Of a DNA stretch of 64,000 nt, positions 2,888 through 36,133 are shown piece after piece (positions within the stretch are counted from its first letter, which is position 1; each line of letters begins with the position of its first letter). The notes beneath the pieces were generated by a model, which had not been told where the DNA came from, did no database searches, and saw only the letters and a program-made list of their open reading frames with translations. Source of the stretch: a candidate division CPR2 bacterium GW2011_GWC2_39_35 (GTDB lineage Bacteria > Patescibacteriota > CPR2); NCBI GenBank assembly GCA_000995065.1, contig LBWX01000001.1, forward strand, positions 31,563 to 95,562. The letters run 5' to 3'. A program made the translations under genes and the position numbers.

Positions 2888-3599
2888 TCTCCATGTGCAC
2901 GAACAGTCTAAAGGTTATATAAAGAAGCTTTTTTTGCGTCGCGACATCAATAAAGAGGCGGATATTTTGCTTATTGGGGGAGATCTCACCCAAAACGGCA
3001 AAATAAGAGAAGCGGAGATATTACTAGAGGAATTAAAAGTTGTGAAAATTCCCATTTATGCAGTTCTTGGAAATCACGATTATCAGCTAAATAAGAAAGA
3101 TAAAATTATCGAGGTTTTAAAAGATAAGGTTTTGGTGCTGGATGGAGATGGGATTGATATTGAAATCAAGGGTTTTAAAGTTGGCATCGCCGGTGTCAAA
3201 GGGTTTTGTGGCGGATTCGAACCTCATGTTGCCCAGGCGTATGGCGAAAAAGCATTAAAAGATTTTGTTTTCGCCGGCGATAGAGAAGCGGAAAAATTGG
3301 ACGAGGCTTTAAGTGAGCTCGAATCTGACGTTAAAATTGCTCTTCTTCATTATTCACCCGTTAAAGAAACAATAATAGGCGAGTTTCCGGAAATTTTTGC
3401 ATTCCTAGGCAGTAAGAAACTTTCTGTGCCTCTTGATTATCACAAAGTTTCCATAGCGTTTCATGGTCATGCGCATCACGGTACAATTATCGGGAAAACA
3501 GATGGCGGGATCGAGGTTCATAATGCAACTAGGATTTTGTATCATAATAACTATATCGTATTTGAGTTGAAGGAAGGCAAATGGATCAGAAAGTTTTAG
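2862..3599 (+). CDS. calcineurin-like metallophosphoesterase
   Basis: IAVVADLHVHE, GGDLTQNG, GNHDY, HGHAHH metal-binding motif series. Confidence 0.8.
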   Translation: MARIAVVADLHVHEQSKGYIKKLFLRRDINKEADILLIGGDLTQNGKIREAEILLEELKVVKIPIYAVLGNHDYQLNKKDKIIEVLKDKVLVLDGDGIDIEIKGFKVGIAGVKGFCGGFEPHVAQAYGEKALKDFVFAGDREAEKLDEALSELESDVKIALLHYSPVKETIIGEFPEIFAFLGSKKLSVPLDYHKVSIAFHGHAHHGTIIGKTDGGIEVHNATRILYHNNYIVFELKEGKWIRKF

Positions 3600-4192
3600 A
3601 CCTCTTAGACGCAACGATAAAAGCTGTAAAGGAAGCCAACATTAATTACATGATTGGTGGCGGCCTTGCCCTTATTCATTATGGAATGCTTAGGGAGACG
3701 CACGACTTGGACATATTTGTAAAACAGGAAGACGCGGAAAAGTTGATAAAAGGCTTTGAAAAACAAGGGATGTTAACTAAGCTCACTGATAAAAGATGGC
3801 TTTATCAAGCGACTTTAGGAAAGGGTTTGCTCGAATTTAAGAAAAACAACACGATAGATGTCATCTTCCAAAATGACACCGAGATTAAAATAGGTGATAG
3901 GTTTTTACTCCGGGCACAGAAAGTTAAGTTTCATGATAGACAGTTTAACGTAATATCTGTCGAAGATCTGGTTTTATTTAAGGCTCATAGTCAAAAAGAA
4001 TGGATAAAAAATCATTGGCGAGACGGAGTTTGGCTTATAAATAATCATATTTTAGAATTCAATTGGGATTATTTTTTGAGTTTGCCGGAAGCGTATTCCA
4101 GAAAGGTACTTGGTTTTTTGCTGATGGTTGATTCTGTAAGACAGGAAGTTCCTTTTAGAGTAATTAAACAAATATCAGATAAAGTATTATAA
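3581..4192 (+). CDS. nucleotidyltransferase-fold (minimal NTase/MNT-like) protein
   Basis: GGGLALIHYGMLRETHDLDIFV matches G[GS]-x(9-13)-D-x-D NTase signature; overlaps preceding gene by 19 nt (operon). Confidence 0.5.
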   Translation: MDQKVLDLLDATIKAVKEANINYMIGGGLALIHYGMLRETHDLDIFVKQEDAEKLIKGFEKQGMLTKLTDKRWLYQATLGKGLLEFKKNNTIDVIFQNDTEIKIGDRFLLRAQKVKFHDRQFNVISVEDLVLFKAHSQKEWIKNHWRDGVWLINNHILEFNWDYFLSLPEAYSRKVLGFLLMVDSVRQEVPFRVIKQISDKVL

Positions 4193-28633: not shown

Positions 28634-29731
28634 GTGGAGATTAAACCGCAAGTCGAAACTTTTGCACGGATCAAGGTTGTCGGCTTAGGTGGAGGTGGCA
28701 CTAATGCCATTAATAGGATGATCGCAGCAAACTTGAGAGGTGTCGAGTTTATTGCGATTAACACTGATGCTCAATCGTTGCATCACTGCGATGCATCGAA
28801 GAAAGTCCACATTGGGAAAACAACCACTCGTGGACTCGGAGCAGGATCTGACCCTGACACGGGCCGAAAAGCAGCCGAAGAGTCTTCAGAAGAAATTTAT
28901 GAAGCCTTAAAGGGCGCAGACATGATCTTTCTAACTTGCGGTATGGGCGGCGGTACAGGCACCGGTTCTATACCAGTGGTGGCAAGTTTGGCAAGAGAAG
29001 TTGGCGCCTTGACAGTGGGAATCGTGACAAAACCATTTATCTTCGAAGGAGAAAGAAGAAAGAGAGTATCCGAAGAAGGCATGGATCTCTTAAAGGACAA
29101 GGTTGACACTTTAATTACTATTCCAAATGATCGACTGCTTACCATGATTGACAGGAAAACAACAATGCTAGATGCATTTAATGTGGTAGATGATGTTTTA
29201 CGTCAAGGCGTCCAAGGCATTTCTGATCTTATTACAGTTCATGGCGTAATTAATGTAGACTTTGCGGATGTTAAGGCAATCATGTCTAATGCTGGTTCGG
29301 CTCTAATGGGTATCGGTAGAGGAACTGGTGAAAACAGGGCTACAGAGGCTGCAAAAATGGCTATCAATAGTCCTCTGCTCGAGGTATCTATTGATGGCGC
29401 AAGAGGGGTATTATTCAATATATCCGGCGGTCCGGATCTGGGCATGTTCGAAATAGATGAAGCAGCTAAGGTTATTACTCAAGCCGTTGATTCAGACGCA
29501 AACATCATATTCGGTTCCGTCATCGATCCTAATATATCCGGAGAAATTAAGATTACCGTTGTTGCAACCGGGTTTTCTCCTGATAGGCCGCAAGCACCAC
29601 TAACCGAAACGCGCAGAATTGAGCCGGAGCCAGTGAGGACGTATCCGATCTTTACTTCTAAGCCAGAGGAAGATACCGAAAAAGACGATGAACTTGATAT
29701 CCCAGCCTTTATAAGGCATAGAGTAGAGTAG
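28634..29731 (+). CDS. ftsZ: cell division GTPase FtsZ
   Basis: tubulin signature GGGTGTG, GLGGGGTNA, T7 loop NVDFAD; AGGAGG SD with GTG start. Confidence 0.9.
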   Translation: MEIKPQVETFARIKVVGLGGGGTNAINRMIAANLRGVEFIAINTDAQSLHHCDASKKVHIGKTTTRGLGAGSDPDTGRKAAEESSEEIYEALKGADMIFLTCGMGGGTGTGSIPVVASLAREVGALTVGIVTKPFIFEGERRKRVSEEGMDLLKDKVDTLITIPNDRLLTMIDRKTTMLDAFNVVDDVLRQGVQGISDLITVHGVINVDFADVKAIMSNAGSALMGIGRGTGENRATEAAKMAINSPLLEVSIDGARGVLFNISGGPDLGMFEIDEAAKVITQAVDSDANIIFGSVIDPNISGEIKITVVATGFSPDRPQAPLTETRRIEPEPVRTYPIFTSKPEEDTEKDDELDIPAFIRHRVE

Positions 29732-29747
29732 TTTTAAAGATTTTTTA

Positions 29748-29774
29748 TTGCAAGGATACCCGTTAAGAGTAACG
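29748..29774 (+). terminator. hairpin ACCCGTTA-AGAG-TAACGGGT followed by GTTTTTG after ftsZ
   Basis: inverted repeat plus T-run read directly. Confidence 0.5.
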
Positions 29775-29888
29775 GGTGTTTTTGTTTATATAGACGCCTT
29801 GTTGATATCTTTTGTAGGTGGATAAAGTGTTGTGGATTTTTACATTTTATCTTCTTAAAGCTAAAAAATCATGTGGAAAAGAAAAGCA

Positions 29889-29941
29889 TTGACACGCTAT
29901 ATATAGGGTTATAAGCTAACTTATAACACTATATATAGTAT
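29889..29941 (+). promoter_or_regulatory. two NrdR boxes (acgCTATATATAGgg and acaCTATATATAGtat) with cores 32 bp apart overlapping a TTGACA -35 element, upstream of nrdR
   Basis: palindromic CTATATATAG cores at 29897-29906 and 29929-29938; second copy is a near-perfect match to the NrdR-box consensus acacTATATATAGtgt; the region between is itself palindromic. Confidence 0.6.
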
Positions 29942-29953
29942 TAGGAGTTATCT

Positions 29954-30418
29954 ATGCAATGTCTTGATTGCAAACAAAATGATACAAAGGTTATGGAATC
30001 CCGCGAGCTTTACGACGGTGAGGTAATAAGGAGAAGAAGAGAGTGCTTGCATTGTAATTCTAGATTTACTACCTATGAGAGAGTAGAAACCCCAGTTCTT
30101 ATAATTGTAAAAAAAGATGGCAAGCATGAACAATTTATAAGGCAAAAAGTGGCCAATGGTATCTATAGGGCTTGCGAAAAACGAGAAATACCGCAGTTAC
30201 AGATTGAGCAAATTATTACTAAAATAGAAAAAAAATTAAGAGCTACTGGTGAATCAGAAATTTCCAGCAAAGAAATTGGAGAAATTGTGTTAGAAGAATT
30301 AGCAAATTTAGATGATGTAAGCTATATAAGATTTGCTTCTGTATACAAATCATTTACGGATATAGATAGCTTTCAAGATGTCTTAAATGAATTAAAGAAA
30401 GAAAAATCAAAAATATAA
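29954..30418 (+). CDS. nrdR: transcriptional repressor NrdR (zinc ribbon + ATP-cone)
   Basis: MQCLDCKQNDTKV...C..C zinc ribbon, ATP-cone (VIKKDGKHEQF). Confidence 0.9.
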   Translation: MQCLDCKQNDTKVMESRELYDGEVIRRRRECLHCNSRFTTYERVETPVLIIVKKDGKHEQFIRQKVANGIYRACEKREIPQLQIEQIITKIEKKLRATGESEISSKEIGEIVLEELANLDDVSYIRFASVYKSFTDIDSFQDVLNELKKEKSKI

Positions 30419-30428
30419 AGGGGGTAAA

Positions 30429-32261
30429 ATGCTTACAAGAGTTGCAAAGGAAAAACTGACAAAAGAGGCTGAAGAGTTATTGGAGAGCGCCTACTACCAT
30501 ACAGATTTTAGAGGAAGCGGTTTGGATAATTTTGATGGATTATGTAGGCGGGCGGCTAAAGAAGCTAGTAAAGCGGAATTTCGGGTGAGTTCCCGAATGC
30601 TTATTGAGGAAGAATTTTATAGTGCGATAGTCAATCTTAAATTTCTGCCAAGTTCCCGGATTTTAAAAAATATTGGATTGAACAATGATCTTCTCTCGGA
30701 TCGGATTGATTATCTAAAGAGCGATTTTGAAACGAACCACACCAATCCGGCTGAGCTTTTTAAGTCAAAGAATCTACTTTTTAAGCGAATTGACGATCCG
30801 GACATTGAAAATTTTTTAGATAAAGAACAGGATCTGGAGGTAATAACTGTTGTTAGCTTAACCGAAAATTTTATGAGCTCAGTAATTAAGGATGGTTATT
30901 ATGATTTACTCATGCACGGAAACGGACAACCGGTAAGGAAGTTAAGGGCGAGAGAAGTGTGGAGCAAGCTTATAGGGTTAATTATGCAGCGGGATGCAAT
31001 AAATATAGCTTTTGGCGATGAGGTGATGAGATCTAACAATATTTCCCCGTCAGAAAGCTTAAAAGAGTTAATGCAAATTTTTTATGAAGAAAGTTTAAGT
31101 GTCGGGTATATCAACCTAGCAAAATTCGTTCGAGATGAAGAAATTCTTTGGGATGACTTGCAAGATACCTTAAAGACCGGTGTTAGGTTTTTAAATAATG
31201 TTGTGGAACTTTTAAATGAGCCGTCTTGTAAGACAGTAAAAAGAAATCTTGGATTGGGAGTTACTGGCTTTGCAGATTTGCTCATTAAGCTTCGGATTCC
31301 GTATTCATCAAGTACAGCGGTTGATTTCGCTGAAAAACTCGCAAGGTTTTTATATGTTGAATCGAATAAAGCCATAGAGGAGGTTATGGCTGAAAAGCAG
31401 CACTCTAATGATGGCGACAATAGTCTCTTTATAAATAATAATAGTTATCTTGCGATTCTTCCTTCAAAGGAAATAGCAGTCATTACAAATACCGAGAAAG
31501 GCATTGATGCAATAAATAGCTTGGTAAACGAAAATGGCCAGATCAACTCTCTTTTTTATGAAATTGCAACGAGGGAAGGTTTTTACAATGAAGATTTGGA
31601 AAGCGCTCTTAAAGAAGATAATAAGGTTACATATAATAAACTATTTCCTCTAAAATGGCAGGATATCTTTGCTTTATCCAGCGAAATAGCTCCCGAAAAG
31701 CAAATTAAGATTCAAGCCGCTTTTCAGAAATATGTTGATAACATCGTCTTTAAAAACGTTAATATTTCCAAAGAAACAACTCAAAATGAATATGAAGACA
31801 TGGTATTAATGGCTTACAGGATGGGGCTTAAAATGTTGAGCATAACTAAAGAAGCAGAAGACGAAAAATACAACCCAATAACCGACAAAGAAGAGAATTT
31901 TCGTGAGACGGAAAGGATGCTTAAAAAATCTGATGAATTAGTTGTGTATGAGAGTAAGACTGTTAAGGTTAAGGTCCCCTGTGGAGAGCTCCTGGTTACC
32001 ATAAACACAAATGAGGTTAAAGAAAACCAGGGCATATTTGTTAATTTTGAAGGAAATAATAAGTGCGCTATACCGCAATTGCAGCTAGTAGCGAAGCTAA
32101 GTTTATCTCAAATCAATAATTCAGATAATAATGCTGAGGTTTTAGGAGAGTTAAGTAGGGTTACTTGTAAAGGACACAGTGATGATAATGAAGGTGTATT
32201 AATTGCCAAATCGTGTAGCGAAGCCATCGCGAAAGCTCTAAAGGTAGTAAAATCAGAATAA
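30429..32261 (+). CDS. ribonucleotide reductase large-subunit (class I/II NrdJ/NrdA-like) homolog lacking all catalytic cysteines: predicted pseudoenzyme with ~140-aa Cys-containing C-terminal tail
   Basis: RNR-alpha motif series in canonical order: FLPSSRILKNIG (cf FLPNSPTLMNAG), ENFMSSV, AREVWSKLIGLIMQRDAINIAFGDE, NLGLGVTGFADLLIKLRIPYSS (cf NRxxGLGxMGFADxL), NSYLAILPSKEI (cf NSxLxAIAPTGS), IQAAFQKYVD, MAYRMGLKMLSI. Positions expected for the C225/C439-E441/C462 equivalents read D (DLLSD), S..S (NNISPSE) and S/G (ESLSVGYINL); no Cys within 20 aa of any. Confidence 0.6.
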   Translation: MLTRVAKEKLTKEAEELLESAYYHTDFRGSGLDNFDGLCRRAAKEASKAEFRVSSRMLIEEEFYSAIVNLKFLPSSRILKNIGLNNDLLSDRIDYLKSDFETNHTNPAELFKSKNLLFKRIDDPDIENFLDKEQDLEVITVVSLTENFMSSVIKDGYYDLLMHGNGQPVRKLRAREVWSKLIGLIMQRDAINIAFGDEVMRSNNISPSESLKELMQIFYEESLSVGYINLAKFVRDEEILWDDLQDTLKTGVRFLNNVVELLNEPSCKTVKRNLGLGVTGFADLLIKLRIPYSSSTAVDFAEKLARFLYVESNKAIEEVMAEKQHSNDGDNSLFINNNSYLAILPSKEIAVITNTEKGIDAINSLVNENGQINSLFYEIATREGFYNEDLESALKEDNKVTYNKLFPLKWQDIFALSSEIAPEKQIKIQAAFQKYVDNIVFKNVNISKETTQNEYEDMVLMAYRMGLKMLSITKEAEDEKYNPITDKEENFRETERMLKKSDELVVYESKTVKVKVPCGELLVTINTNEVKENQGIFVNFEGNNKCAIPQLQLVAKLSLSQINNSDNNAEVLGELSRVTCKGHSDDNEGVLIAKSCSEAIAKALKVVKSE

Positions 32262-32289
32262 ATCCAAGTGAAATAAAAAGGAGGAAAAA

Positions 32290-34434
32290 TTGAAAGAAAA
32301 TGCCGACATGGAGCAAGCTCAGCTTAATCTAGGAAAGAAAGTTCTAGAAAAAAAGCCTTTTACCCACATCATAAAGCGTAATGGAGATTTGGTTAGGTTT
32401 GAGAACGTAAAGATTACCAATGCAATTCTAAAGGCGGGAGCGGCCACAGGAGAGCTTAATGAAAAGCTTGCTAAGAAATTATCCGATAAAGCGGTAAATC
32501 TCTTAATAAGAAAGTTTGAGAATAACCCACCTACGGTTGAGCAAATTCAGGATGTAGTGGAACACATTTTAATTGATTCGATATTTGAGGAGACAGCAAA
32601 GGCCTATATCCACTATCGAAGAAAAAGGGCAGAGGCCAGAGAGGTTACAAAACTGCTTGACCCTCAAGCAATAATGGAAGGCTATCTTAATGAAACCGAT
32701 TGGCGAGTTAAAGAAAATAGTAATATGAGCTACTCGTTACAGGGTCTAAATAACTATATCAGTACAGCTGTGACCACTAAATATTGGCTCGAGAAAATGT
32801 ATCCTGAAAACATCAAGAAGGCTCATATCGACGGCGATTATCATATTCACGACCTATACATATTAGCGGCTTATTGTTCCGGTTGGGACTTAAAGGATCT
32901 GCTGCTAAGCGGTTTTGGGGGAGTGAGAGGCAAAATAGAGAGCGGGCCTGCTAAGCATCTTCGCGTTGCCTTAGGGCAGATTGTCAATTTCTTTTACACT
33001 CTTCAGGGGGAAGTTGCCGGCGCTGTTGCTTTTTCCAATTTTGATACTTACTTAGCACCTTTTGTCCGCTATGACAAGCTTGCTTATAAGGACGTTAAGC
33101 AATGCCTTCAGGAATTTGTTTTTAATATTAATGTTCCGACGAGAGTTGGTTTTCAAACTCCTTTTACTAATATCACTATGGACGTAAAGCCATCGAAGCT
33201 GATCGGTGAAGAGAATGTTATAATTGGCGGCAAGCCCCAAAAGGAAAAGTATAAAGAATTTCAGAAGGAAATGGATCTTATAAACAAAGCTTTTGCCGAA
33301 GTAATGATGGAAGGGGATGCAAAGGGTAGAGTCTTCACGTTTCCAATTCCGACTTACAATATCACAAAGGATTTTAACTGGGACAATCCGGTCTTAGATC
33401 CCGTCTGGGAGATGTCTGCTAAATACGGCATCCCTTATTTTTCGAACTTTATCAATTCTGATATGGATCCGGATGATGCTCGTTCTATGTGCTGTCGCCT
33501 TCGAATTGATAATACCGAGCTTCGAAAAAGAGGCGGCGGCTTATTCGGCGCTAATCCTCTGACGGGCAGTGTCGGAGTAGTCACAATTAATCTGGCCAGG
33601 GTCGGTTACTTATCTGAGAACAAGAAGGAATTTTTAGAAAGAGTCGGGACTCTGGCCGATCTAGCACATGAAAGTCTGATAATTAAAAGAAAAGCGGTCG
33701 AAAAGTTTACGTTAGAAGGTTTATATCCTTATGCGAAAGTTTATCTTGATAGTGTGTATAAAAGATATGGCAAGTATTGGCAAAATCATTTTTCGACCAT
33801 TGGAGTACTTGGTATGAACGAAGCCATGTTAAACTTTAGAGGAAAAGGCTTAGGCGATGAGGAATCTCGAAGCTTTGCATTAGAAGTAATGGATTTCTTA
33901 AATGACAAGATGCTTAGATATCAGAAAGAGACGGGAAATCTATATAATTTAGAGGCTACTCCCGGAGAAGGAACCACTTATCGGTTTGCAAGACTTGATA
34001 AGAAAAAATATGCTGATATTATGGTGGCTAACGAAGACGCATTTAGGGAAGGTGCTGAGCCATATTACACTAATTCTTCTTGGCATCCTGTTAATTTTAC
34101 AAACGATATCTTTGAGCTATTGGATAAGCAGGATGACTTTCAGACTAAATATACCGGCGGCACGGTGCTTCATAACTACATCGGCGAAAGAATTAATAAT
34201 GTTAATTCTTTTAAAAAGCTAGTAAAAACTATTGCTGAAAATTATAAATTGCCTTACTTTACTATTACTCCTACATTTAGCGTTTGCCCAAAACATGGAT
34301 ATTTAGCCGGGGAACATCACTTCTGCCCGATCTGCGATGAAGAAATTGGTTATAGAGAGCAGTTAACTCTAGAAATTCCAACGGAAAGTAAGACCCAATC
34401 AAAACTTAATGTTAAACAAAAAATAAAAGCCTAA
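32290..34434 (+). CDS. nrdD: anaerobic (class III) ribonucleoside-triphosphate reductase NrdD, large part (ATP-cone, barrel, thiyl-Cys loop, Zn ribbon), ending at an in-frame TAA before the glycyl-radical loop
   Basis: ATP-cone (IIKRNGDLVRFENVKI..AKAYIHYRRKRAEARE), HIHDLY..YCSGWD, thiyl-Cys loop SMCCRLRI, C-terminal Zn ribbon CPKHGY..CPICD; collinear with E. coli NrdD as recalled. Confidence 0.8.
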   Translation: MKENADMEQAQLNLGKKVLEKKPFTHIIKRNGDLVRFENVKITNAILKAGAATGELNEKLAKKLSDKAVNLLIRKFENNPPTVEQIQDVVEHILIDSIFEETAKAYIHYRRKRAEAREVTKLLDPQAIMEGYLNETDWRVKENSNMSYSLQGLNNYISTAVTTKYWLEKMYPENIKKAHIDGDYHIHDLYILAAYCSGWDLKDLLLSGFGGVRGKIESGPAKHLRVALGQIVNFFYTLQGEVAGAVAFSNFDTYLAPFVRYDKLAYKDVKQCLQEFVFNINVPTRVGFQTPFTNITMDVKPSKLIGEENVIIGGKPQKEKYKEFQKEMDLINKAFAEVMMEGDAKGRVFTFPIPTYNITKDFNWDNPVLDPVWEMSAKYGIPYFSNFINSDMDPDDARSMCCRLRIDNTELRKRGGGLFGANPLTGSVGVVTINLARVGYLSENKKEFLERVGTLADLAHESLIIKRKAVEKFTLEGLYPYAKVYLDSVYKRYGKYWQNHFSTIGVLGMNEAMLNFRGKGLGDEESRSFALEVMDFLNDKMLRYQKETGNLYNLEATPGEGTTYRFARLDKKKYADIMVANEDAFREGAEPYYTNSSWHPVNFTNDIFELLDKQDDFQTKYTGGTVLHNYIGERINNVNSFKKLVKTIAENYKLPYFTITPTFSVCPKHGYLAGEHHFCPICDEEIGYREQLTLEIPTESKTQSKLNVKQKIKA

Positions 34435-34449
34435 CGAAGGGAGGGAAAG

Positions 34450-34620
34450 ATGAAACCCATAGAAGAAATAGAAAATTTAGAAGACAAGAGACAACCTTGC
34501 GAAGTATTCTCGCGAGTGGTTGGGTATATTCGGCCGGTTCATCAGTGGAATAAAGGAAAACAATCGGAATTTAAGGACAGAAAGTTACTCAATATGGAAT
34601 TAGATATAGAAGAAGTTTAA
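34450..34620 (+). CDS. 56-aa NrdD glycyl-radical peptide (separately initiated C-terminal fragment of NrdD)
   Basis: GGAGGGAAAG SD then ATG; CEVFSRVVGYIRPVHQWNKGKQSEFKDRK matches the NrdD glycyl radical signature (RVCGYLG..NxGKxxEVxxR); same reading frame as 32290..34434, separated by a single TAA (34432-34434). Confidence 0.6.
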   Translation: MKPIEEIENLEDKRQPCEVFSRVVGYIRPVHQWNKGKQSEFKDRKLLNMELDIEEV

Positions 34621-34657
34621 GGGTTATCAGCATAAAGGCTATGGACGAAGGCAACTC

Positions 34658-35359
34658 ATGATTATCAGCGGTTTAGAAAAAACGACGCTTATTGACTATC
34701 CGGGCAAAATTGCCGCAACTATTTTTACATACGGGTGTAATTTTAGGTGCGGTTTTTGTCATAATCCAGACCTAGTGATCGGAAAAAAAGAAGATAGACC
34801 AATTATTACCGAGGAAGAAATATTAACTTTCCTTAAAAAACGAAAGGGTATCTTGGAGGGTGTTTGCATTACGGGCGGAGAACCGACTATCCATAAAGAT
34901 TTGCCGACATTTATTAACAAAATAAAGAAAATAGGGTTGAATGTAAAACTTGACTCTAACGGCACAAATCCCGAAATGCTAAAAGAATTAATCGAAAATA
35001 ACCTGATTGATTATATTGCCATGGACATTAAAAATTCTCTTAGCGAGTATAATCTCACGACAAACACAAGCGTTGATACCGGAAAAATTAAAGAGAGTAT
35101 CAAGATTATCCTCAGTAGCGGTCTTCACTACGAATTTAGAACAACGCTACTTCCAAGGCTGCATAATAAGACCGCTTTGGATGAAATAGGGCGTTTATTA
35201 AAGGGCGCTAAGAAATATACATTACAGGGCTTTCGTCCGGGCATAACTATTTCTAAAAGTTTTGAGACGGAGAAAATCTTTAGCAAGGAAGATCTTATTG
35301 AATTAAAGATGGTTCTTAAGAAATATGTTAAGGATATCGAAGTAATTGATAATTTGTGA
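34658..35359 (+). CDS. nrdG: anaerobic ribonucleotide reductase activating protein NrdG (radical SAM)
   Basis: CNFRCGFCHNP radical-SAM/NrdG cluster motif near N-terminus; 233 aa; immediately downstream of nrdD. Confidence 0.85.
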   Translation: MIISGLEKTTLIDYPGKIAATIFTYGCNFRCGFCHNPDLVIGKKEDRPIITEEEILTFLKKRKGILEGVCITGGEPTIHKDLPTFINKIKKIGLNVKLDSNGTNPEMLKELIENNLIDYIAMDIKNSLSEYNLTTNTSVDTGKIKESIKIILSSGLHYEFRTTLLPRLHNKTALDEIGRLLKGAKKYTLQGFRPGITISKSFETEKIFSKEDLIELKMVLKKYVKDIEVIDNL

Positions 35360-35642
35360 TATACTTAGACCAACACTCATGAAGGTATTAATATTTTCAA
35401 AAGACAATAGTTCGTATTTCGAGGAAAGAGCGTTAGATGATTTCGAATCTAACCTGAAATCCGATCATTTTGAAGTAGAGAAATTGGATACGGAAAATGT
35501 CGACGGAAATTTAAGAGCGCTTCTGTATGATATTATGACTACGCCTTCGGTTGTTGTAACGACAAGTGATGGACAATATATTCGCGCTTGGAGTGGCGAA
35601 TTGCCGCCTCTTGCTGAAATTAAGTATTATTTAACGGTGTAA
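35346..35642 (+). CDS. thioredoxin/glutaredoxin-fold small protein lacking the CxxC active site (SSYF in its place)
   Basis: fold pattern KVLIFS-KDNSSYFEE-helix-FEVEKLD-...TTPSVVV (cis-Pro position)...DGQYIRAWSG..; core probably starts at Met 35379; overlaps nrdG stop. Confidence 0.45.
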   Translation: MIICDILRPTLMKVLIFSKDNSSYFEERALDDFESNLKSDHFEVEKLDTENVDGNLRALLYDIMTTPSVVVTTSDGQYIRAWSGELPPLAEIKYYLTV

Positions 35643-35645
35643 TAT

Positions 35646-35903
35646 ATGAAATTTTTATTAAGCGACATCATTGATCTAATAGCAAATGCTCTAACTCTCC
35701 TCTTATTTGCAAGAGCTATTATTTCCTGGATCCCAAATGCCCACAATAAATTTAGCGACTTTATTGTAAAAGCCACCGACCCCTTCTTAAATCCCATCAG
35801 AAGCGTGGTTCCTGTTGTTGGCGGTGTCGATTTTTCACCGCTTGTCCTGTTTTTTGTCATACAGGTCTTAAGGAATCTACTGTTTAGATTTGCCGGAGTT
35901 TAA
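35646..35903 (+). CDS. yggT: YggT-family membrane protein
   Basis: LLLFARAIISWIP... YggT signature, 85 aa, two TM helices. Confidence 0.7.
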   Translation: MKFLLSDIIDLIANALTLLLFARAIISWIPNAHNKFSDFIVKATDPFLNPIRSVVPVVGGVDFSPLVLFFVIQVLRNLLFRFAGV

Positions 35904-36133
35904 TGAAAATCACGGTTAAGGTGACTCCTAATGCCAGAGATAATCTTGTTATACCAATCGAAGATGATTTTAGGGTGAGAGTAACAGCGCCGGCCGGCAA
36001 GGGGCAAGCAAATGCAAAAGTTATAGAACTGATTTCGGAGTATTTTAAGGTACCAAAATCGAAAGTAGAAATAATTAGCGGCTGGAATTTTAGAGAGAAA
36101 ATTGTTAAGATTGAGACAGATGAAGACAAATAG
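35903..36133 (+). CDS. DUF167 (YggU/UPF0235) family protein
   Basis: VKVTPNARDN...V.APAGKGQANAKVIELISEYF family-typical sequence; conserved yggT-yggU adjacency. Confidence 0.75.
   Translation: MKITVKVTPNARDNLVIPIEDDFRVRVTAPAGKGQANAKVIELISEYFKVPKSKVEIISGWNFREKIVKIETDEDK

Follow-up and report, generated by a model that had tools for sequence, protein, structure and literature searches.

A probable two-chain class III ribonucleotide reductase, with the glycyl-radical loop on a separate peptide, in CPR2 bacteria and other lineages

Can the glycyl radical of an anaerobic ribonucleotide reductase (RNR) be carried on a different polypeptide from the active site that it serves? The question is raised by a locus of the candidate division CPR2 bacterium GW2011_GWC2_39_35, which lies within a 64,000-nucleotide stretch of contig LBWX01000001.1 (GenBank assembly GCA_000995065.1, positions 31,563 to 95,562). 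We refer to this whole stretch as the window and give all positions in its coordinates. The class III RNR gene nrdD ends there at a TAA just past its zinc ribbon, and the glycyl-radical motif lies on a separate open reading frame (ORF) of 56 codons, followed by nrdG, the gene for the radical-SAM activase. A first-pass annotation, made from the letters of the DNA, had pointed out the break and proposed a replaceable radical peptide, or else readthrough, a pseudogene or an assembly error. We put the probability at roughly 0.8 that the two ORFs encode an obligate two-polypeptide class III RNR, whose radical peptide would be activated by NrdG and dock in trans.

One NrdD divided between two adjacent genes

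The split gene, its parts and the adjacent activase gene are laid out as follows.

32290 to 34434, forward strand: nrdD large chain, 714 aa, TTG start, TAA at 34432-34434 (matches to PF13597, ATP-cone, NF006126 and TIGR02487)
33490 to 33495, forward strand: codons for finger-loop C401 and C402 (MCCR motif), the predicted thiyl-radical site (invariance; described double-cysteine type)
34285 to 34335, forward strand: zinc ribbon C666-P-K-H669 ... C679-P-I-C682, the final canonical element of the large chain (invariance; alignment to fused relatives)
34336 to 34431, forward strand: extra C-terminal tail of the large chain, opening with D-E-E-I-G-Y, the remainder variable (homologue alignment)
34435 to 34449, forward strand: 15-nt spacer with ribosome-binding site GGGAGGG at 34439-34445, 4 nt 5' of the ATG (read directly)
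34450 to 34620, forward strand: nrdD small chain, the glycyl-radical peptide, 56 aa, ATG at 34450, TAA at 34618-34620 (PF13597 positions 530-560)
34658 to 35359, forward strand: nrdG, radical-SAM activase predicted to install the glycyl radical (TIGR02495, NrdG2)

A GGAGG sequence precedes the TTG start of the 714-codon ORF, which closes with ...CPKHGYLAGEHHFCPICDEEIGYREQLTLEIPTESKTQSKLNVKQKIKA (in longer form ...FSVCPKHGYLAGEHHFCPICDEEIGYREQLTLEIPTESKTQSKLNVKQKIKA) before its TAA. The spacer reads cgaaGGGAGGGaaag and, at 15 nt, leaves the large and small ORFs in the same frame. The translated peptide, MKPIEEIENLEDKRQPCEVFSRVVGYIRPVHQWNKGKQSEFKDRKLLNMELDIEEV, begins with MKPIEEIENLEDK and has the core C17-EVFSRVVG25Y-IRPVHQWNKGKQSEFKDR, in which the codon of the radical glycine, Gly25, occupies 34522-34524. 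Read directly, the letters bear out what had been reported: a 714-aa NrdD ORF that stops past the zinc ribbon, then a Shine-Dalgarno site and an ATG, 15 nt after the TAA, that open an in-frame 56-codon ORF with the glycyl-radical motif.

The large ORF matches positions 1-529 of PF13597 (NRDD, 562 positions; E 1.8e-179) and the peptide matches positions 530-560 (E 5.3e-10). With two consecutive matches that are far beyond chance, the family profile is cleanly bisected between the ORFs. On PF13597 the large chain reaches 598.5 bits (cut-off 26.2), and NCBIfam agrees with Pfam (509.3 bits on TIGR02487, cut-off 326; 1023.8 on NF006126, cut-off 548); the ATP-cone lies at its N-terminal start. PF13597 is the sole Pfam match of the peptide, which does not belong to the Gly_radical family of the pyruvate formate-lyase (PFL) type. 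Pfam and NCBIfam have no dedicated model for it, and a phmmer search of the peptide alone against PDB sequences returned chance-level matches only. Where sources name the pieces, both are mostly called ‘anaerobic ribonucleoside-triphosphate reductase’.

Residues expected of the catalytic chain are present on the large ORF. M400, C401, C402 and R403 are invariant across 58 large chains, as are the predicted zinc-ribbon ligands C666, H669, C679 and C682, and the zinc-ribbon region aligns with the CPxHGY...CPxC element of fused relatives. The double-cysteine MCCR finger-loop type has been described previously (PMC9669993), and its presence appears to group the enzyme with those of Thermotoga maritima and N. 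bacilliformis. No RVxGY glycyl-radical motif is found on the large chain, which stops 32 aa past the zinc knuckle. Given a large chain without a glycine loop, the peptide would be obligatory, and the pair, not the large chain alone, appears to equal one NrdD. By sequence, the radical glycine and the thiyl cysteine are thus assigned to different chains (Gly25 to the peptide, C401/C402 to the large chain), as first proposed.

The peptide itself is under purifying selection. Fourteen columns are invariant in 30 diverse peptides, including C17, S21, R22, V24, G25, Y26, R28, P29, V30, W33 and N34, and the median dN/dS (ratio of nonsynonymous to synonymous substitution rates) of the 28-codon core is 0.09, as calculated from the 32 pairs in which dS was usable. 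For the remaining 199 of the 231 pairs, dS fell beyond the usable range, consistent with synonymous saturation, and their amino acids are still conserved. These values bear on the possibility that a nonsense mutation in a normal nrdD, either a recent pseudogene or an assembly or sequencing error, has been mistaken for a gene boundary. One stop codon does break an otherwise continuous homology, but a decaying gene would fit poorly with a peptide dN/dS of ~0.09, with the invariant catalytic residues of the large chain and with an intact nrdG (206.6 bits on TIGR02495 in NCBIfam, cut-off 131).

Recurrence of the split across lineages

The exact 56-aa peptide occurs on 21 contigs of public collections. 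Five of these loci were fetched (Logan SRR6487949, JGI 3300025309, NCBI GCA_003526405.1 and two ENA assemblies), and all have the same 714-aa ORF, peptide and nrdG, with a junction that is base-for-base identical. The five show 100% identity across 3.8 kb and thus amount to a single population assembled repeatedly rather than independent lineages, which leaves an error explanation some room.

More divergent sequences decide the matter. None of the 120 nearest large-chain homologues (90% clusters, 62-100% identity) has a glycine loop, and all end with the CPxC and a short tail. The peptide search returned 265 homologues, of which the best 120 are all stand-alone, Met-initiated proteins of 38-89 aa that match PF13597 only; several are encoded on contigs of 100-900 kb, and the labels include CPR2, Patescibacteria, Minisyncoccales and Diapherotrites. 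Homologues with 55-80% identity share the architecture, and the junction comprises ~45 extra codons and a ribosome-binding site, not a point change. We therefore regard a pseudogene or an assembly or sequencing error as having a negligible chance of being correct. Comparison with orthologous loci, a check that the first-pass annotation suggested, finds the split in all 120 nearest large-chain homologues and in divergent genomes as well.

Fused and split forms coexist more broadly. Among the best 150 representatives of a library clustered at 50%, 64 have the glycine loop and 45 end just past the zinc knuckle without it; the remaining 41 are truncated or unclassifiable, and many contain inteins. 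A scan of one genome per species gave 80 loci, 19 of them classed as split, in Patescibacteria of several classes, three Micrarchaeota (L020, L030 and L049), a member of the Thermoplasmatales (L014) and, in partial form, a Hippea metagenome-assembled genome (MAG; L076). Gene-by-gene listing shows the order large chain, peptide, nrdG in the CPR2 locus L006, the Diapherotrites locus L009 and two other Patescibacteria (L010-L012). The order also recurs in Micrarchaeota and in a Thermoplasmatales genome, and nrdG lies 3' of the peptide gene in every split locus with called genes listed. On this sequence evidence, a two-chain NrdD appears to be the usual form across much of the Patescibacteria, and it is found in DPANN archaea as well.

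The first-pass annotation stressed that the two ORFs lie exactly in frame. This is true of the window, where a single TAA and 15 nt part them, and it is what speaks for readthrough, recoding or frameshifting that would yield one fused NrdD, with the peptide ORF only apparent. Across 23 split lineages, however, the stop and the ATG are -8 to 179 nt apart; 9 lineages have both ORFs in one frame (about the number expected by chance) and 14 do not. Several of the same-frame lineages have further stops separating the ORFs, and in the close relatives L006 and L013 the gap is 11 nt and the ORFs are out of frame. The in-frame TAA of the window is thus coincidental and carries no significance. Every peptide ORF in the split lineages opens with an ATG of its own, in many cases behind a Shine-Dalgarno site. 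Moreover, TAA terminates 32 of the 51 window ORFs of at least 150 aa, and so is not recoded, and an Rfam scan of 29000-36000 gave zero matches and no notable structure in the region. A fused product made in this way is very improbable, and with neither frame nor spacing conserved, translation of the two chains would have to be separate.

Other departures from the ordinary gene were seen in the same searches. In a Saccharibacteria-labelled MAG (L018, 792-2950) the large chain is broken into overlapping frames (792-2315 and 2240-2950), which reflects either a frameshift error or a decaying gene. Many NrdD representatives in the series P0121-P0270 reach 800-1900 aa and match in two to four separate stretches, a pattern that indicates one to three putative inteins per gene; similar patterns occur at loci L034, L041, L057, L074 and L090. 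In P0174 (836 aa), NrdD is fused to an NrdG-like radical-SAM domain, and six representatives (P0159, P0170, P0181, P0192, P0205 and P0230) have a C-terminal thioredoxin/NrdH-like extension with a TCPNC motif.

The break site and the segments added there

Fused relatives end with the pattern ...CPxHGY..GEHxxCPxC-(3 to 8 residues)-CEVYSRVVGYLRPV.QWN.GKQ.EF.DRK, and the break falls in the short linker that joins the second zinc knuckle to the glycine loop. The split brings ~45 additional residues at this point (32 aa as a tail of the large chain and 16 aa as a leader of the peptide), whereas the fused linker from CPxC to CEVYSRVVGY is only 3-8 residues. Across the split forms, tails of 9-34 aa extend the large chain and leaders of 4-25 aa precede the peptide core.

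Within the large-chain tail, D683 never varies, E685 and G687 reach at least 90% conservation, and a motif of the type CD-x-E-[ILM]-G-[YF] is found in almost all of the 120 nearest large-chain homologues. The motif D-x-E-I-G-Y (34336-34353, D683-Y688) is conserved in nearly all split large chains, including those of Micrarchaeota, its counterpart in the independently split L014 is DEELGL, and it is absent from fused relatives. We considered EIGY as a second radical glycine and rejected it as a canonical site: there is no Arg at -3, and the motif lies only four residues past the zinc knuckle, compared with at least 13 in the fused relatives inspected. The idea that Cys17 of the peptide completes a zinc site shared with the large chain was weakened by the four invariant candidate ligands already present (C666, H669, C679 and C682) and by the Thr that often stands at that position in fused relatives.

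Could the two chains be joined after translation, for example by split-intein-like trans-splicing? The abundance of inteins in NrdD genes of this clade, with the many long, multiply interrupted representatives described above, would be in keeping with it, as would the invariant C17 just ahead of the conserved peptide core. But segments of 9-34 and 4-25 aa are far below the size of an intein fold, C17 is preceded by RQP, RTK or KTK rather than His-Asn, and the tail starts with Asp, not Cys or Ser. Close fused relatives have the equivalent Cys and more distant ones have Thr, indicating that the Cys is a clade feature. Joining of the chains is accordingly a reading that we give scarcely any credence.

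Some termini have features that the window peptide does not. Many radical peptides end in cysteine pairs (CGC, CxC or CxxC; P0012, P0020, P0042, P0063, P0091 and others), as do many large-chain tails (P0164, P0177, P0188, P0214 and P0254); the window peptide has none. Such terminal pairs recall the C-terminal redox shuttles of class I and class II RNRs. In the Hippea MAG (L076, junction at ~330-460), the tail KEEKLEEIESEIQRLKRQLELEMENG... and the leader MMTRDEILKRIEELEKAKKEIKG both resemble heptad-repeat helices, and similar helical tails occur in P0191, P0199, P0225 and P0263. From their sequences, the L076 helices may be a coiled-coil docking device, distinct from the D-E-E-I-G-Y type.

Origin of the fission

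A rough neighbour-joining tree was built from 553 well-occupied columns of the C-terminal 560 residues of the large chains, up to the zinc knuckle. In this tree, one clade unites 16 bacterial split forms, that of the window among them, and the Micrarchaeota split forms make up a second. The Thermoplasmatales form L014 falls among fused Thermoplasmatales enzymes; its large chain shares 86-88% identity with the fused L046, L079 and L059, and no more than 66% with any other split form. DNA alignment of L014 (3455-3530) with the fused sisters L046 and L079 reveals a 71-nt insertion exactly between CPxC and CEVYSR, which holds the tail codons, a TAA, AGGAGG and an ATG, and the L014 peptide resembles the C-termini of the fused sisters. 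Fission has therefore occurred at one site more than once, and the split state arose or spread at least two or three times, a number that is uncertain because the tree is a neighbour-joining tree.

Structure and proposed mechanism

An AlphaFold2 model of the large chain alone (58 sequences) has a mean pLDDT (predicted local distance difference test) of 79, with low confidence at the finger loop (401-424) and the tail (693-714, pLDDT <50) and a short predicted helix over CDEEIGY (680-686). The top Foldseek matches in the PDB are all class III RNRs: 9d3x (S. thermophilus), 8p2c (P. copri), 4u3e and 4coi (T. maritima) and 1h7a (T4). Solved structures of NrdD show the C-terminal glycyl-radical domain within the barrel, held non-covalently, with its glycine beside the finger loop (PMC9669993). 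Since contact between the radical domain and the barrel is non-covalent apart from the linker that is broken here, a detached loop could in principle fill the same site.

We propose that the 714-aa, 82-kDa chain supplies the ATP-cone, the ten-stranded barrel, the C401/C402 finger loop and the zinc ribbon, and that the 56-aa, 6.6-kDa chain supplies the glycine loop (Gly25 in SRVVGY) and a short following segment. Both ORFs would share a transcript with nrdG and be translated independently, with translation of the peptide starting behind a strong ribosome-binding site of its own. NrdG would then abstract a C-alpha hydrogen from Gly25, whether the peptide is free or in the complex, and the peptide would fill the barrel channel that is taken by the attached C-terminal domain in ordinary NrdD, passing the radical from Gly25 to C401 or C402 of the finger loop.

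Glycyl-radical enzymes exposed to oxygen are cut at the radical glycine. By analogy with known spare parts, a speculative benefit of the split is that such cleavage would cost the cell only a cheap 6.6-kDa peptide, not an 82-kDa enzyme. Taken further, the radical may be carried by a diffusible, cofactor-like peptide of 5-7 kDa that is activated free by NrdG, docks with any large chain and is replaced after oxygen cleavage, a possibility that we raise only tentatively and think rather unlikely. If it is true, free-peptide activation would involve no buried domain that has to flip out of the barrel.

A second architecture: stand-alone 92-aa radical domains

Some Minisyncoccales and Paceibacterota (L053, L054, L086, L093 and L094) encode a fused nrdD with its own CEVYSRVVGY, then a 92-aa ORF, then nrdG. 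The 92-aa ORF (3643-3921 in L053; 4001-4279 in L093, GCA_036987175.1) combines a CxxC...CxxC zinc ribbon of its own with an NrdD-type glycine loop. Its relatives number at least 120, are 74-110 aa long and cover 76-100% of its length, and C7, C10, C43, C46 and G67 are invariant in the family; one relative is annotated in Minisyncoccus archaeiphilus (MNSN_06970), a species apparently grown in co-culture. Foldseek of the domain model against the PDB gave no significant match, merely weak zinc-ribbon ribosomal proteins. Stand-alone proteins of 101-160 aa with a zinc ribbon and glycine loop, without an adjacent nrdD, occur in one Patescibacteria MAG and two Desulfobacterales-type MAGs (L026, 3318-3623; L084, 3126-3608; L092, ~3087-3620).

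Being encoded beside an intact nrdD, the 92-aa protein is a closer analogue of the PFL spare part GrcA than the window peptide is, and by that analogy a candidate spare part of the GrcA kind for class III RNR. According to a 2026 review, detached glycyl-radical spare parts are known solely for formate lyases (PMC13450708). Together with the split enzyme, the 92-aa domains beside intact nrdD genes suggest that NrdD-type radical domains work in trans. If the cofactor-like peptide proposed above is real as well, trans-acting radical modules would constitute a general strategy of repair and activation for anaerobic RNRs in candidate phyla radiation (CPR) bacteria and in DPANN archaea.

Is the split adaptive?

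Several points weigh against the two-chain enzyme or against the advantage suggested for it. The two-chain account does not explain the conserved D-x-E-I-G-Y motif on the large chain, and no consistent charge complementarity was found between tail and leader. Finally, the oxygen-repair advantage rests on analogy, and selectively neutral fission at a permissive loop could have produced the same arrangement.

This last alternative competes only with the notion of a replaceable part, not with the two-chain mechanism: the two-chain enzyme would work, the split would bring no benefit, and it would persist as the loop tolerates a break. Neutral fission explains the data as well as the oxygen-repair idea does. 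The same loop is broken in unrelated lineages, as would suit a site whose structure permits a break, neither the length nor the sequence of tails and leaders is constant, and the carriers are small-genome lineages in which strong drift would be expected. The split class II enzyme NrdJa/NrdJb likewise has no obvious advantage, according to its authors (PMC4520616). On the other hand, the split is fixed across a very large clade, with 0 of the 120 nearest homologues reverted to the fused state, it arose or spread at least two or three times, and the autonomous radical domains beside intact nrdD genes hint that a detached domain is useful. We judge neutral fission to have a little under an even chance. 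Whether the split is adaptive or neutral, the obligate two-polypeptide enzyme is our preferred account of the locus.

Genomic context

Two further genes precede nrdD in the cluster.

29954 to 30418, forward strand: nrdR, transcriptional repressor of RNR genes, first of the cluster (Pfam Zn_ribbon_NrdR, E 1.5e-18; ATP-cone, E 7.5e-22)
30429 to 32261, forward strand: NrdJ-like (class II RNR-like) ORF, 610 aa, context and not part of the split enzyme (Pfam Ribonuc_red_lgC and lgN)

The cluster order is nrdR, NrdJ-like ORF, nrdD large chain, nrdD small chain and nrdG, with spacers of 10, 28, 15 and 37 nt, and nrdR keeps its position in relatives L001-L008. Neither a promoter for the peptide internal to the cluster nor an intergenic terminator exceeded shuffled expectation.

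The NrdJ-like ORF reaches at best 268 bits in NCBIfam (cut-off 961), and in alignment with T. maritima NrdJ (1xje) the NPCGE finger-loop motif, which holds the radical cysteine, is replaced by L..MQI. It is probably catalytically inactive, and may be an inactive RNR-like protein with another role. The ORF is conserved in CPR2 relatives (534 aa in L006). Because the upstream ORF lacks NPCGE, the earlier suggestion of an organism with one anaerobic RNR is plausible for the 64 kb of the genome considered here.

Comparison with known systems

How does this pair of genes compare with RNRs and radical proteins that have been characterized? Canonical NrdD with NrdG, as in E. coli, phage T4 and T. maritima (1h7a, 4coi and 4u3e), has the same ATP-cone, barrel, zinc ribbon and adjacent NrdG, and the likeness extends to the T. 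maritima-type MCCR finger loop and the glycine-loop sequence SRVVGY...WN.GK. In all described class III enzymes, however, the glycine loop is the C-terminus of the same chain, whereas in the window it is a separate 56-aa product and the large chain has a D-E-E-I-G-Y tail. The class III enzyme has been described as a homodimer (PMC4520616).

The first-pass annotation likened the peptide to GrcA/YfiD. The comparison is apt in that both are small, stand-alone proteins that copy the radical-bearing C-terminal segment of a glycyl-radical enzyme, and both presumably share the partner's activase and insert in trans. It fails in that GrcA backs up a PFL that retains its own glycine loop, whereas the large chain in the window has none, making the peptide an obligatory part and not a backup. 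GrcA acts only after oxygen cleavage of its partner and, to our knowledge, is not encoded within its partner's operon. It also belongs to the PFL-type Gly_radical family, whereas the window peptide matches only PF13597.

Other RNR genes are divided as well. In Pseudomonas aeruginosa, the catalytic gene likewise comprises two adjacent ORFs of one operon, nrdJa and nrdJb, with a functional element on the C-terminal piece, and both products are required (PMC4520616). That enzyme differs in being class II, and NrdJb (229 aa) carries a redox cysteine pair, not a radical. It is the only split RNR so far recognized in cellular organisms (PMC4520616). No description of a split NrdD was found in the full-text literature searched, which leaves out most subscription-journal papers, so that absence is not proof. 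The class I large-subunit gene nrdA of Aeromonas phage Aeh1 is reportedly divided into two ORFs by a homing-endonuclease insertion, with products that reassemble. No endonuclease gene lies between the pieces in the window, where the gap is 15 nt.

For annotation, a two-chain NrdD matters in that the large chain alone routinely receives the name ‘ribonucleoside triphosphate reductase’, as if it were complete, and the peptide is readily overlooked. For physiology, the split suggests a low-cost way of surviving oxygen for organisms with minimal biosynthetic capacity. For mechanism, it would offer a natural system in which to probe how an activase gains access to a buried glycine and whether radical domains can be exchanged between enzymes.

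In the separation of its parts, the pair resembles the alpha and beta subunits of class I RNR, in which the stable radical and the thiyl active site are also on separate polypeptides. In class I the radical subunit, a ferritin-like di-metal protein that holds a tyrosyl radical or metal centre, is unrelated, and the oxygen-dependent enzyme relies on long-range proton-coupled electron transfer rather than loop insertion. Should the radical of the two-chain class III enzyme indeed travel on a diffusible peptide, anaerobic RNRs would have converged on the logic of class I, with a radical subunit set apart from the catalytic one.

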